From assembly GCF_057098645.1 (NCBI RefSeq), contig NZ_CM169472.1: a stretch of 64,000 nt of DNA; one strand, 5' to 3'. A program made the position numbers. This document shows positions 39,001 through 42,000 of this stretch, piece after piece (the first letter of the stretch is position 1; the number at the start of each line of letters is the position of its first letter).

Positions 39001-42000
39001 AGCGATTATGGATGGCACCACTCCTCGCGTGCTGGAGAACGCCGAAGGCGATCGCACCACGCCTTCTATTATTGCCTATACCCAGGATGGTGAAACTCTG
39101 GTTGGTCAGCCGGCTAAACGTCAGGCAGTGACGAACCCGCAAAACACCCTGTTTGCGATTAAACGCCTGATTGGCCGCCGCTTCCAGGACGAAGAAGTAC
39201 AGCGTGATGTTTCCATCATGCCGTTCAAAATTATTGCTGCTGATAACGGCGACGCATGGGTCGAAGTTAAAGGCCAGAAAATGGCACCGCCGCAGATTTC
39301 TGCTGAAGTGCTGAAAAAAATGAAGAAAACCGCTGAAGATTACCTGGGTGAACCGGTAACTGAAGCTGTTATCACCGTACCGGCATACTTTAACGATGCT
39401 CAGCGTCAGGCAACCAAAGACGCAGGCCGTATCGCTGGTCTGGAAGTAAAACGTATCATCAACGAACCGACCGCAGCTGCGCTGGCTTACGGTCTGGACA
39501 AAGGTACTGGCAACCGTACTATCGCGGTTTATGACCTGGGTGGTGGTACTTTCGATATTTCTATTATCGAAATCGACGAAGTTGACGGCGAAAAAACCTT
39601 CGAAGTTCTGGCAACCAACGGTGATACCCACCTGGGTGGTGAAGACTTCGACAGCCGTCTGATCAACTATCTGGTTGAAGAATTCAAGAAAGATCAGGGC
39701 ATTGACCTGCGCAACGATCCGCTGGCAATGCAGCGCCTGAAAGAAGCGGCAGAAAAAGCGAAAATCGAACTGTCTTCCGCTCAGCAGACCGACGTTAACC
39801 TGCCGTACATCACTGCAGATGCGACCGGTCCGAAACACATGAACATCAAAGTGACTCGTGCGAAACTGGAAAGCCTGGTTGAAGATCTGGTAAACCGTTC
39901 CATTGAGCCGCTGAAAGTTGCACTGCAGGACGCTGGCCTGTCCGTATCTGATATCGACGACGTTATCCTCGTTGGTGGTCAGACTCGCATGCCAATGGTT
40001 CAGAAGAAAGTTGCTGAGTTCTTTGGTAAAGAGCCGCGTAAAGACGTTAACCCGGACGAAGCTGTAGCAATCGGTGCTGCTGTTCAGGGTGGTGTTCTGA
40101 CTGGTGACGTAAAAGACGTACTGCTGCTGGACGTTACCCCGCTGTCTCTGGGTATCGAAACCATGGGCGGTGTGATGACGACGCTGATCGCGAAAAACAC
40201 CACTATCCCGACCAAGCACAGCCAGGTGTTCTCTACCGCTGAAGACAACCAGTCTGCGGTAACCATCCATGTGCTGCAGGGTGAACGTAAACGTGCGGCT
40301 GATAACAAATCTCTGGGTCAGTTCAACTTGGATGGTATCAACCCGGCACCGCGCGGCATGCCGCAGATCGAAGTTACCTTCGATATCGATGCTGACGGTA
40401 TCCTGCACGTTTCCGCGAAAGATAAAAACAGCGGTAAAGAGCAGAAGATCACCATCAAAGCTTCTTCTGGTCTGAACGAAGATGAAATCCAGAAAATGGT
40501 ACGCGACGCAGAAGCTAACGCCGAAGCTGACCGTAAGTTTGAAGAGCTGGTACAGACTCGCAACCAGGGCGACCATCTGCTGCACAGCACCCGTAAGCAG
40601 GTTGAAGAAGCAGGCGACAAACTGCCGGCTGACGACAAAACTGCTATCGAGTCTGCACTGACTGCACTGGAAACTGCTCTGAAAGGTGAAGACAAAGCCG
40701 CTATCGAAGCGAAAATGCAGGAGCTGGCACAGGTTTCCCAGAAACTGATGGAAATCGCCCAGCAGCAACATGCCCAGCAGCAGACTGCCGGTGCTGATGC
40801 TTCTGCAAACAACGCGAAAGATGACGATGTTGTCGACGCTGAATTTGAAGAAGTCAAAGACAAAAAATAATCGCCCTATAAACGGGTAATTATACTGACA
40901 CGGGCGAAGGGGAATTTCCTCTCCGCCCGTGCATTCATCTAGGGGCAATTTAAAAAAGATGGCTAAGCAAGATTATTACGAGATTTTAGGCGTTTCCAAA
41001 ACAGCGGAAGAGCGTGAAATCAAAAAGGCCTACAAACGCCTGGCCATGAAATACCACCCGGACCGTAACCAGGGTGACAAAGAGGCCGAGGCGAAATTTA
41101 AAGAGATCAAGGAAGCTTATGAAGTTCTGACCGACTCGCAAAAACGTGCGGCATACGATCAGTATGGTCATGCTGCGTTTGAGCAAGGTGGCATGGGCGG
41201 CGGCGGTTTTGGCGGCGGCGCAGACTTCAGCGATATTTTTGGTGACGTTTTCGGCGATATTTTTGGCGGCGGACGTGGTCGTCAACGTGCGGCGCGCGGT
41301 GCTGATTTACGCTATAACATGGAGCTCACCCTCGAAGAAGCTGTACGTGGCGTGACCAAAGAGATCCGCATTCCGACTCTGGAAGAGTGTGACGTTTGCC
41401 ACGGTAGCGGTGCAAAACCAGGTACACAGCCGCAGACCTGTCCGACCTGTCATGGTTCTGGTCAGGTGCAGATGCGCCAGGGTTTCTTTGCCGTGCAGCA
41501 GACCTGTCCACACTGTCAGGGCCGCGGTACGCTGATCAAAGATCCGTGCAACAAATGTCATGGTCATGGTCGTGTTGAGCGCAGCAAAACGCTGTCCGTT
41601 AAAATCCCGGCAGGGGTGGACACTGGAGACCGCATCCGTCTTGCGGGCGAAGGTGAAGCGGGCGAGCATGGCGCACCGGCAGGCGATCTGTACGTTCAGG
41701 TTCAGGTTAAACAGCACCCGATTTTCGAGCGTGAAGGCAACAACCTGTATTGCGAAGTCCCGATCAACTTCGCTATGGCGGCGCTGGGTGGTGAAATCGA
41801 AGTACCGACCCTTGATGGTCGCGTTAAACTGAAAGTGCCTGGCGAAACCCAGACCGGTAAGCTGTTCCGTATGCGCGGTAAAGGCGTCAAGTCTGTCCGC
41901 GGTGGCGCACAGGGTGATTTGCTGTGCCGCGTTGTCGTCGAAACACCGGTAGGCCTGAACGAGAAGCAGAAACAGCTGCTGCAAGAGCTGCAAGAAAGCT

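Follow-up and report, generated by a model that had tools for sequence, protein, structure and literature searches.

Background

Operon-internal attenuators and 3' stabiliser hairpins are the described systems that come closest to the element considered here, and examples of them include the REP hairpin between malE and malF, the internal terminator of the rpsU-dnaG-rpoD operon, and the stem-loop that follows dnaK in the dnaK operon of Bacillus subtilis. The features that they share with the hairpin in the dnaK-dnaJ spacer, catalogued as Tpke11, are a stable stem situated between co-transcribed genes, a discrete RNA 3' end at the base of that stem, a greater abundance of the upstream than of the downstream mRNA, and a Rho-independent site. 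The Tpke11 hairpin departs from these systems in being present as one copy per genome, unlike REP, in lacking a canonical U-tract, and in the invariance of its 6-bp core sequence across several orders, a trait that is not usual in generic terminators and stabilisers. A second comparison is offered by the small RNAs SroC, CpxQ and MicL, which, like Tpke11, are derived from a longer mRNA without a promoter of their own and end at a hairpin. However, these RNAs have Hfq-binding U-tails, conserved single-stranded seeds and targets validated in vivo, none of which has been shown for Tpke11.

Tpke11 was reportedly detected originally on a northern blot by Rivas and colleagues in 2001. Its location is of interest because one operon encodes both DnaK and its co-chaperone DnaJ, although the cell requires the two proteins in different amounts, and a hairpin between the two genes is the most obvious device for such a difference. 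Recent work on Salmonella has further shown that the DnaK:DnaJ ratio shifts under stress resembling infection. The element is already known: Tpke11 is a catalogued entry with a mapped 3' end, earlier work has commented on its conservation, and the present analysis adds no new biology. Its contributions are small, namely a formal covariation test and the extension of the core hairpin to Vibrionaceae, Shewanella and Aliidiomarina. From the evidence below we argue for describing Tpke11 as a 3'-end element that acts in cis, in preference to an sRNA gene.

Results and discussion

The dnaK-dnaJ spacer and its hairpin

The DNA analysed, hereafter the window, is a 64-kb stretch of contig NZ_CM169472.1. 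The dnaK coding sequence (38954..40870, plus strand; 638 aa, stop codon TAA at 40868-40870) was recovered from the ORF list and by translation, and is annotated as dnaK in matching E. coli genomes. It is followed on the same strand by dnaJ (40959..42089; 376 aa from the ATG at 40959), whose product is 100% identical to the DnaJ proteins of E. coli and E. albertii. The two genes are separated by a spacer of 88 nt (40871..40958, plus strand), which has the same sequence as the spacer of K-12 MG1655 and the published Tpke11. Of 5426 complete E. coli genomes, 5424 contain a region of 288 bp around the spacer, each as a single copy.

The initial annotation had pointed to an inverted repeat in this 88-bp spacer, and both of its arms are indeed present, cgggcgaagg at 40901-40910 and cctctccgcccg at 40918-40929, although the full hairpin proves slightly larger. 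This hairpin, H3, spans 40899..40931 on the plus strand and is marked by its fold energy, its covariation and its single occurrence in the window. In the predicted fold its outer stem pairs 40899-40906 (CACGGGCG) with 40924-40931 (CGCCCGUG) and is separated by an A40907/C40923 mismatch from an inner stem, in which AGGGGA (40908-40913) pairs with UCCUCU (40917-40922) through one G-U pair among others, and the loop is AUU (40914-40916). An optional extension by U40896-A40933 and G40897-C40932 widens the hairpin to 40896-40933 and brings the number of predicted pairs to 16, the kind of GC-rich stem-loop that is found in intrinsic terminators. The hairpin segment of 41 nt folds at -25.4 kcal/mol, as against -10.9 +/- 2.4 kcal/mol in 200 dinucleotide shuffles, none of which was as stable (z = -6.0), and the whole 88-nt spacer folds at -32.7 kcal/mol (z = -4.3 versus shuffles).

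The pattern ACGGGCG-N(8-24)-CGCCCGT occurs once in the 64-kb window, with 0 occurrences expected by chance. A REP-like repeated palindrome was rejected on this single match in the window and on the presence of the 288-bp region at one place per genome in the 5424 genomes.

Identity with Tpke11

The Rfam model RF02031 (tpke11) matches the window at 40881..40958 on the plus strand over model positions 1-77 of 77, scoring 69.6 bits where the gathering score is 43 (E = 2e-14 in a 4.4-kb search and 2.9e-13 in the whole window), compared to only 22.1 bits on the minus strand. The published 89-nt Tpke11 sequence equals 40871-40959 of the window, and its location agrees as well, being the sense strand of the spacer between dnaK and dnaJ, both of which lie on the plus strand. 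Tpke11 (Rfam RF02031; EcoCyc G0-8893) and the window hairpin are thus the same element, with no difference in sequence and with the same position and strand; the statement in the initial annotation that a small RNA candidate of this name had been reported from the K-12 spacer was right. The central hairpin of the RF02031 model is present in the window and is backed by the comparative data presented below. The model nevertheless differs from our description in three respects. It begins 10 nt into the spacer and so leaves out the GCCCU that follows the dnaK stop codon; it draws a small 5' hairpin that our alignments do not support; and its label, 'Gene; sRNA', implies a product that acts in trans, for which the present data give no support.

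Conservation and covariation of the hairpin

A hairpin with the same core was found in the spacers of all 44 free-living Enterobacterales, and in 3 of 4 AT-rich reduced symbionts. The core hairpin, CGGGCG/CGCCCG, also occurs in Vibrionaceae, Shewanella and Aliidiomarina, and so extends past the curated Tpke11 family. Other Alteromonadales have different GC-rich hairpins at the same place, several of them with more U-rich tails. Folding gave z < -2 versus shuffles for 74 of 79 spacers, and the distance from the hairpin to the ATG is kept at 22-31 nt across the orthologous spacers.

Applied to the raw MAFFT alignment of the spacers, RNAalifold recovered the invariant outer stem alone, and the inner stem was brought into register by an alignment limited to the hairpin. 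Across 47 distinct orthologous sequences, 86.6% of the hairpin cells are paired, versus 33-56% with the partner strand shifted along. Changes on both sides of a pair affect 42 cells, compared to 16.4 in shuffles, with none of 500 shuffles reaching 42, and the covariation score of 0.214, versus 0.139 in shuffles, was likewise equalled by none of 500. These two-sided changes are confined to the inner stem and the three outermost stem pairs. G-U pairs are found at three inner positions (17, 10 and 6 instances in the 47 sequences), and since they would become C-A mismatches on the opposite strand, it is the sense-strand RNA that folds.

The 6-bp core CGGGCG/CGCCCG is invariant in 45 of the 47 distinct sequences, and the remaining two show only G-U, U-G or a single mismatch, while the inner stem and loop are free to vary. 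A terminator or stabiliser that works through its structure alone would not require so much sequence to be conserved over such great evolutionary distances, and this counts against regarding the hairpin as an element of that kind.

Transcription of the spacer

A scan for sigma-32-like promoters was run with mismatches allowed, because the exact consensus is too strict even for the true dnaK promoters. Its sole matches in 38601-41000 are at 38804-38831 and 38879-38906 on the plus strand, both upstream of dnaK; neither the spacer nor the 3' part of dnaK yielded a match, and a sigma-70 consensus scan of the plus strand near the spacer also returned nothing. A separate promoter for Tpke11 or dnaJ was therefore rejected, there being no match to either consensus. 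Likewise, no promoter was noted in Sodalis (PMC6887450), and Tpke11 has been listed among RNAs processed out of longer transcripts (PMC8313858).

Published Term-seq data place a discrete RNA 3' end within the spacer of K-12, at genome position 14145 (Adams et al. 2021, PMC7815308, supplementary files 1 and 3). Upon transfer of the coordinate to the window, which was checked by the sequence identity of the spacer, this end corresponds to 40936 on the plus strand, 3-5 nt beyond the stem and 23 nt upstream of the dnaJ ATG. Coverage drops about 3-fold across the site, from 1085 upstream to 351 downstream, and is left unchanged by bicyclomycin (1076/435); the Rho score of 1.25 marks it as not a Rho region, and the intrinsic-terminator score is 4.33, values of at least 3 being suggestive (PMC7815308). 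The end is above the Term-seq threshold in only 1 of 3 growth conditions, and corresponds to a single tpke11 entry in supplementary file 1 (PMC7815308). In northern blots with a dnaK probe the main band is 2.1 kb and contains dnaK only (Stead et al. 2011, PMC3082872), a size that agrees with a coding sequence of 1917 nt plus the leader and about 66 nt from the spacer. Even read-through of the spacer with no discrete 3' end, the outcome that had been named beforehand as speaking against a role of the hairpin, is thus contradicted by the published Term-seq and northern data. In Salmonella at low Mg2+, dnaK mRNA is 2.5-fold above the spacer and dnaJ mRNA (Chan et al., PMC12077118). At high Mg2+ the levels of dnaK, spacer and dnaJ mRNA are similar (PMC12077118), and the effect is therefore conditional or modest.

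The sequence beyond the stem (GCAUUCAUCU) is not a canonical U-tract: taking such a tract as at least 5 U in the 8 nt directly 3' of the stem, the tail CAUUCAUC falls short with 3 U in 8. Among the Enterobacterales orthologues, counts over 12 nt are mostly 3-5 U, and four orthologues reach 6-7. A consensus terminator scan made no call at the hairpin site, and for the Salmonella spacer Chan et al. state that they could recognise no intrinsic terminator (PMC12077118). Given the non-canonical tail, the result of the scan and this statement, termination proper is unproven.

A proposed cis-acting element that forms the 3' end of dnaK mRNA

The reading that we favour, with a probability of about 0.62, is that the hairpin is a cis-acting, operon-internal element that forms the 3' end of dnaK mRNA and thereby gives an excess of dnaK mRNA over dnaJ mRNA. 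Transcription would begin at the heat-shock promoters upstream of dnaK, and folding of the hairpin in the nascent or the full-length RNA would lead to a 3' end a few nucleotides beyond its base. This end might be made by leaky Rho-independent termination, by a downstream cut followed by the blocking of 3'-to-5' exonucleases, or by a combination of the two. The outcome would be a stable dnaK mRNA of about 2.1 kb that is monocistronic and approximately 3-fold in excess of the read-through dnaK-dnaJ mRNA, and this excess may contribute to more DnaK than DnaJ being made. That the hairpin is the cause of the 3' end, and that formation of this end sets the stoichiometry of the two proteins, are both steps that we infer; a literature search found no mutational test of the hairpin. 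The small Tpke11 RNA would then probably be a by-product of 3'-end formation rather than a regulator in its own right. The suggestion in the initial annotation of an intra-operon attenuator or processing element that modulates the DnaK:DnaJ ratio corresponds to this reading, and is favoured by the 3' end at 40936, the fall in coverage from 1085 to 351 and the dnaK-only RNA of 2.1 kb.

Possible endonucleolytic cleavage and protection

The favoured reading differs solely in how the 3' end is made from a possible, though rather doubtful, account in which there is no termination at all. In this account RNase E or RNase III would cut the dnaK-dnaJ transcript in or just past the spacer, and the hairpin would only shield the dnaK fragment from 3' exonucleases, with the dnaJ fragment decaying faster. 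The poor U-tract of the tail is in line with such a course of events. RNase E is said, after work by Chao and colleagues in 2017, to prefer R-N|W-U-U, and the GC|AUU at 40931-40935 resembles this preference and could be a candidate site. Experimental support comes from the PhoP-dependent destabilisation measured for the dnaJ part and not the dnaK part of the message by Chan et al., who themselves favour cleavage into mRNAs of unequal stability (PMC12077118). In ribonuclease mutants dnaK mRNA is up when RNase E is affected and likewise when RNase III is, and dnaJ mRNA is up only in the RNase III mutant (PMC3082872). The same study, however, found that dnaK mRNA, with its main band of 2.1 kb, is more abundant and not lost in the RNase E deletion strain (PMC3082872), and this rise argues against RNase E as the maker of the 2.1-kb end. 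Also at odds with an origin by cleavage are the intrinsic-terminator score, which is over the threshold (Adams et al., PMC7815308), and the more U-rich tails found behind the equivalent hairpin in related gammaproteobacteria.

A possible sequence-specific site in the core

It is also conceivable, but unlikely, that the core of the hairpin is a site recognised by its sequence, through which a conserved protein or ribonuclease adjusts read-through or decay. A factor of this kind would fit the hairpin because the core is invariant across Enterobacterales, Vibrionaceae, Shewanella and Aliidiomarina while the inner stem and loop vary. If such a site existed, the DnaK:DnaJ ratio would be a regulated quantity, for instance under PhoP and low Mg2+ in Salmonella, where the two genes are uncoupled.

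A possible trans-acting small RNA

We consider it very unlikely that Tpke11 is a genuine trans-acting sRNA, which would be freed from the spacer, bind Hfq and pair with other mRNAs (proposed targets are pgsA, prlC and yehU) or with the dnaKJ message. In favour of this interpretation, Tpke11 is curated as an sRNA family in Rfam, but the annotated 'gene' is merely the whole spacer and is absent from the current K-12 RefSeq record. Supplementary Data 4 of Mihailovic et al. credits Zhang et al. 2003 with its co-immunoprecipitation with Hfq, detected by microarray, yet INTERFACE scored Tpke11 as not Hfq-dependent, and the RNA ending at 40936 (...CGCCCGUGCAUUC) is without the U-tail that is usual in Hfq-dependent sRNAs. 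Gel shifts were obtained in vitro with three mRNAs (PMC6172242), though the RNA used needed extension into the dnaJ coding sequence. With regard to phenotypes, tpke11 is lowered in a PhoP-dependent manner in Salmonella inside fibroblasts, according to the mention of that result in Chan et al. (PMC12077118), and S. Enteritidis with transposon insertions in tpke11 is attenuated in macrophages; however, polarity on dnaJ can account for the transposon phenotype, and overexpression gave no biofilm or motility phenotype. The conservation, moreover, sits in the paired stem and not in a single-stranded seed. An Hfq-dependent sRNA would be expected to have its own promoter or a defined 5' end from processing, together with a terminator hairpin with a 3' U-tail; the locus has no promoter-like site for Tpke11, the hairpin is not followed by a U-tail, and no mapped 5' end for Tpke11 was found in the literature searched.

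As a side observation, weak Rfam sX6 matches over the dnaK 3' end and spacer of four orthologous loci were set aside as chance, being below threshold and representing an unrelated small-protein transcript of Xanthomonas.

Possible control of dnaJ translation

Highly improbable, finally, is a role of the spacer in controlling dnaJ translation through a candidate helix, P1, in which GCCCU just past the dnaK stop (40873..40877, plus strand) would pair with GGGGC (40942..40946, plus strand), the only SD-like tract upstream of dnaJ, with its last G 13 nt before the ATG. This helix would close the spacer and hide the ribosome-binding region, ribosomes terminating on dnaK would open it and so couple the two genes, and the hairpin would serve as a scaffold. 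A comparable arrangement is the 'Min Jou' interaction of the MS2 coat and replicase genes, in which sequence by the upstream frame is likewise complementary to the downstream ribosome-binding region, but P1 differs from it in the want of covariation support and in being context-sensitive in E. coli.

P1 appears in the minimum free energy fold of the E. coli spacer, and the post-stop CCC pairs with the purine tract with a probability of at least 0.55 in 40 of 42 scorable spacers of free-living Enterobacterales, each folded alone. When 30 nt of dnaJ are added, however, the probability drops to 0.32 in E. coli and to about 0 in Citrobacter. The helix is longer in long-spacer genera, and about 79% of its cells pair in register as against 36-60% when slid, but shuffled columns pair as well as the real ones (80.6% versus 79.4%), only 1 cell is changed on both sides, and the per-sequence duplex z-scores are weak. 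The constancy of the hairpin-to-ATG distance and the poor spacing of the E. coli SD-like tract would both agree with a translational role. Against this, P1 is missing outside Enterobacterales and in the reduced symbionts, where the hairpin persists, its bases are contested by a local hairpin (GCCCU at 40873-40877 with GGG(U) at 40884-40887), and no temperature switching is predicted for it between 25 and 50 C. A literature search found no experimental evidence for P1.

Two further candidates in the same region were rejected. A small ORF or N-terminal extension of DnaJ from the GTG at 40929 is discounted, as this GTG is part of the stem, and in other genera its frame is either closed or shifted. 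An RNA thermometer is disfavoured by the folding model, in which no melting is predicted at 25-50 C and the hairpin keeps all its pairs; for E. coli, the region from -20 to +3 has a predicted unpaired probability of 0.53 at 30 C and of just 0.62 at 45 C.

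Structure and identity of the spacer element

In this stretch of E. coli DNA, the dnaK coding sequence (38954-40870, + strand) and the dnaJ ATG (40959, +) are separated by a spacer of 88 nt (40871-40958, +), just as the initial annotation had it, and the two arms that it quoted for an inverted repeat lie where it placed them, cgggcgaagg at 40901-40910 and cctctccgcccg at 40918-40929. Folding of the + strand reveals a hairpin somewhat larger than the one described there: an outer stem of CACGGGCG (40899-40906) with CGCCCGUG (40924-40931), an A40907/C40923 mismatch, an inner stem of AGGGGA (40908-40913) with UCCUCU (40917-40922), an AUU loop between the inner-stem arms, and two further, optional pairs at the base. 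The hairpin is confirmed far above chance. Its energy is -25.4 kcal/mol, against -10.9 +/- 2.4 in dinucleotide shuffles (z = -6.0), and the entire spacer has a folding z of -4.3 relative to shuffles. The pattern ACGGGCG-N(8-24)-CGCCCGT occurs once in the 64-kb window, with a chance expectation of 0. Of the 5424 complete E. coli genomes that match the surrounding 288 bp, 5419 carry it as a single copy with an identity of 99% or more.

The initial annotation was also right that a candidate small RNA, Tpke11, had been reported from this spacer. The Rfam model RF02031 ('tpke11') gives a full-length match at 40881-40958 (+) with 69.6 bits (gathering score 43), and the 89-nt Tpke11 of Mihailovic et al. 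2018, made up of the spacer and the first base (A) of the dnaJ start codon, does not differ from the window sequence, nor does the spacer of K-12 MG1655. The annotation of Adams et al. 2021 (PMC7815308) likewise starts tpke11 at K-12 14080, the first base past the dnaK stop. Because these published boundaries coincide with those of the spacer, 'Tpke11' names the whole spacer and not a mapped transcript. No feature is annotated in the spacer in the current K-12 RefSeq record or in PGAP-annotated genomes. By every sequence-level membership test that was applied, the element is Tpke11/RF02031; the hairpin is real and already known, and its initial interpretation was correct.

Conservation and covariation of the hairpin

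Our comparative set of 80 DnaJ loci, one genome per species, yielded 78 dnaK-dnaJ spacers, which together with that of the window gave 79 for folding. The spacers are long throughout (56-269 nt) and essentially all 79 contain a strong hairpin, with z < -2 against shuffles in 74 and medians of about -5 in Enterobacterales and -4.2 in other gammaproteobacteria. The core ACGGGCG...CGCCCGU is present in 44 of 44 spacers from free-living Enterobacterales, and is kept in 3 of 4 AT-rich, reduced insect symbionts, where the remainder of the spacer has decayed. The same core recurs in Photobacterium, Enterovibrio, Salinivibrio, Vibrio, Shewanella and Aliidiomarina; Pseudoalteromonas, Alteromonas, Rheinheimera and others possess different GC-rich hairpins in the same place, several of these then having more U-rich tails. 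The RF02031 model scores 45-78 bits on orthologues across Enterobacterales, falls below threshold in Aliidiomarina (32 bits), and finds no match in the orthologous loci of Photobacterium, Shewanella and Vibrio; hence, the hairpin is more widespread than the curated family.

A helix of 15 pairs was counted over 47 distinct hairpin sequences (alignment A2). Standard pairs occupy 86.6% of its cells, a share that drops to 33-56% once the 3' strand is displaced by 1-3 columns. Both sides of a pair have changed in 42 cells, compared with 16.4 +/- 3.8 in column shuffles (0 of 500 as high), and the covariation score is 0.214 versus 0.139 in shuffles. The inner stem and the outermost three pairs account for these paired changes. 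As G-U pairs, which would be C-A mismatches on the opposite strand, are frequent, the folding species is the sense-strand RNA, that is, the dnaK-dnaJ message. The core CGGGCG/CGCCCG (40901-40906/40924-40929; A2 columns 6-11/30-35) is identical in 45 of the 47 sequences, the two exceptions showing only G-U, U-G or one mismatch; this invariance covers Enterobacterales, Vibrionaceae, Shewanella and Aliidiomarina, among which the inner stem and loop vary freely. The 6-bp core is thus conserved beyond the need of pairing alone, and its near-invariance is the one feature for which a generic terminator or stabiliser does not account. That a sequence-specific factor acts at this core has a low probability.

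Most Enterobacterales outside the Escherichia/Citrobacter/Enterobacter group (orthologous loci L017-L044) bear an extra hairpin, e.g. at 1112-1133 of locus L022, which lies after the post-stop GCCC...GGGC and ahead of the conserved one. Its sequence varies greatly, but it is paired in every case. The spacers that contain it measure about 100-123 nt; the Escherichia group, with spacers of 82-88 nt, lacks it. The spacer of Mangrovibacter yixingensis (L010, 954-1200) measures 247 nt, with the conserved hairpin 168 nt from the dnaJ ATG, versus 22-31 nt in all other Enterobacterales genomes examined; this arrangement has the appearance of an insertion downstream of the hairpin.

A probable cis-acting 3'-end element within the operon

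No promoter-like site accompanies the spacer: a sigma-70 consensus scan found no + strand site near it, and the sole matches in a mismatch-tolerant sigma-32 scan of 38601-41000 were the two known sites upstream of dnaK. A study of Sodalis, which also remarked on the conserved hairpin, reached the same conclusion on the promoter (PMC6887450), and Tpke11 has been listed among RNAs processed from longer transcripts (PMC8313858).

In Term-seq of MG1655 in LB at OD 0.4, Adams et al. 2021 (PMC7815308) placed an RNA 3' end at K-12 14145 (+), which is 23 nt before the start codon of dnaJ. Since the two spacers are identical, this base corresponds to window position 40936; it is the C in GUGCAUUC and lies 3-5 nt beyond the stem. 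Coverage in 800-nt windows drops from 1085 upstream to 351 downstream without bicyclomycin, and from 1076 to 435 with it; the end has a Rho score of 1.25 and was classed as 'not a Rho region' (PMC7815308). An RNA end within the spacer agrees with the principal northern band obtained with a dnaK probe, a 2.1-kb transcript containing dnaK only (Stead et al. 2011, PMC3082872). A discrete, Rho-independent 3' end with a fall in coverage across it, together with the 2.1-kb transcript, favours the alternative offered in the initial annotation, an intra-operon attenuator or processing element modulating the DnaK:DnaJ ratio.

The best-supported reading is that the hairpin acts in cis, inside the operon, as a former of RNA 3' ends. 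It would thereby cause the mapped end, the coverage drop and the 2.1-kb transcript, so that a stable mRNA with dnaK alone would outnumber the read-through dnaK-dnaJ mRNA roughly 3-fold; this excess would contribute to the surplus of DnaK over DnaJ, and protein stoichiometry would be set in this way. Functionally, the Tpke11 hairpin resembles operon-internal attenuating terminators and stabiliser hairpins. Unlike a canonical intrinsic terminator it lacks a standard U-tract, unlike REP-type elements it is not repeated, and it lacks the hallmarks of Hfq-dependent sRNAs.

The end may be made by either of two routes. Leaky intrinsic termination is favoured by an intrinsic-terminator score of 4.33 against a threshold of 3 (PMC7815308), by the more U-rich tails of relatives, and by the persistence of dnaK mRNA in an RNase E deletion strain, where it is raised and not lost (PMC3082872). 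Endonucleolytic cleavage followed by an exonuclease block at the hairpin is favoured by the poor E. coli U-tract (3 U in 8), on which a terminator consensus scan makes no call, and by differential decay in Salmonella. There, in low Mg2+, dnaK mRNA stands 2.5-fold above spacer or dnaJ mRNA, and the dnaJ part undergoes a PhoP-dependent, selective destabilisation; no recognisable terminator was seen in the spacer and tpke11 was raised as a possible player (Chan, Mukai and Groisman 2025, PMC12077118). The spacer amplicon of that study ends at +49, and the other 85-nt spacers (L003, L006) have the hairpin at nt 29-57, with +49 in its 3' arm. On our reading, a transcript that stops at the hairpin would offer hardly any sequence for cDNA priming, so the amplicon probably reports read-through RNA only.

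The case for Tpke11 as a trans-acting sRNA is thin. Hfq co-immunoprecipitation (microarray) has been attributed to Zhang et al. 2003, and gel shifts were obtained with three mRNAs, for which the RNA needed extension into dnaJ (PMC6172242). Furthermore, no effect on biofilm or motility was seen on overexpression, polarity on dnaJ could account for a transposon phenotype in S. Enteritidis, an RNA with its 3' end at 40936 carries no U-tail, and what is conserved is paired and not a free seed.

A candidate closing helix and the dnaJ ribosome-binding region

In single-sequence folds GCCCU (40873-40877), right after the dnaK stop, pairs with GGGGC (40942-40946), the sole Shine-Dalgarno-like tract before dnaJ, 13 nt from the ATG. 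Such a helix (P1) would gather the spacer into one compact domain. Its predicted probability is high for most Enterobacterales, and it is longer in genera with the extra variable hairpin. Translational coupling, or masking of the dnaJ ribosome-binding site, by P1 would nevertheless be improbable. In an in-register alignment (A3) 79.4% of cells pair, but column shuffles equal this (80.6%); compensatory change is essentially nil, duplex energies beat those of shuffles only weakly, the addition of 30 nt of dnaJ lowers the P1 probability to 0.32 in E. coli and to about 0 in Citrobacter, and P1 is missing outside Enterobacterales, where the hairpin persists. Computed folding over 25-50 C showed no melting in the spacer.

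The E. coli dnaJ leader (40941-40958) has no well-placed Shine-Dalgarno; the last base of its sole purine tract, AGGGG, is 13 nt from the start codon, and the A-rich run AAUUUAAAAAAG comes next. In Pantoea a UAAGGG stands at 6 nt; Pectobacterium and Yersinia possess a second AGGA nearer the ATG. The poor placement in E. coli may be one reason, separate from the hairpin, for low DnaJ synthesis. A GTG at 40929, in the 3' arm, opens a formal 386-aa ORF (40929-42089) that reaches dnaJ in the same frame without meeting a stop codon, and would add 10 residues to the DnaJ N-terminus. Its use is unlikely, because the corresponding frame of most other genera either meets a UAA in the conserved AUGUUAAGGG or is shifted out of frame.

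Other features of the window

Genes of the hsp70 type are known for long ORFs on their antisense strand, a quirk of composition, and here one of 678 aa (38912-40948, -) opposes nearly all of dnaK, with its TTG start inside the spacer. Sub-threshold Rfam matches to the Xanthomonas RNA sX6 (20-26 bits, gathering score 40) span the dnaK end and spacer of four orthologous loci (L003, L005, L012 and L024, about 930-1192). The product of sX6 is a secreted protein of 80 aa, for which no connection with dnaK is stated, and the matches were judged chance. The hokC/mokC-sokC toxin-antitoxin locus directly follows dnaJ (42090-42928), with an 80-aa ORF at 42193-42435 (-) and an Rfam sok match at 42343-42495 (122 bits), and nhaA begins at 42929. 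K-12 MG1655 has IS186A between dnaJ and mokC, so the window comes from a different strain; 25 of 3136 bases in the dnaK-dnaJ stretch differ from K-12. Further Rfam matches above threshold are the threonine operon leader (26984-27103, +, 121 bits), naRNA4 (18288-18365, -, 77 bits), ES003 (61960-62012, +, 87 bits) and ES036 (32385-32427, -, 38.8 bits, threshold 37.6).
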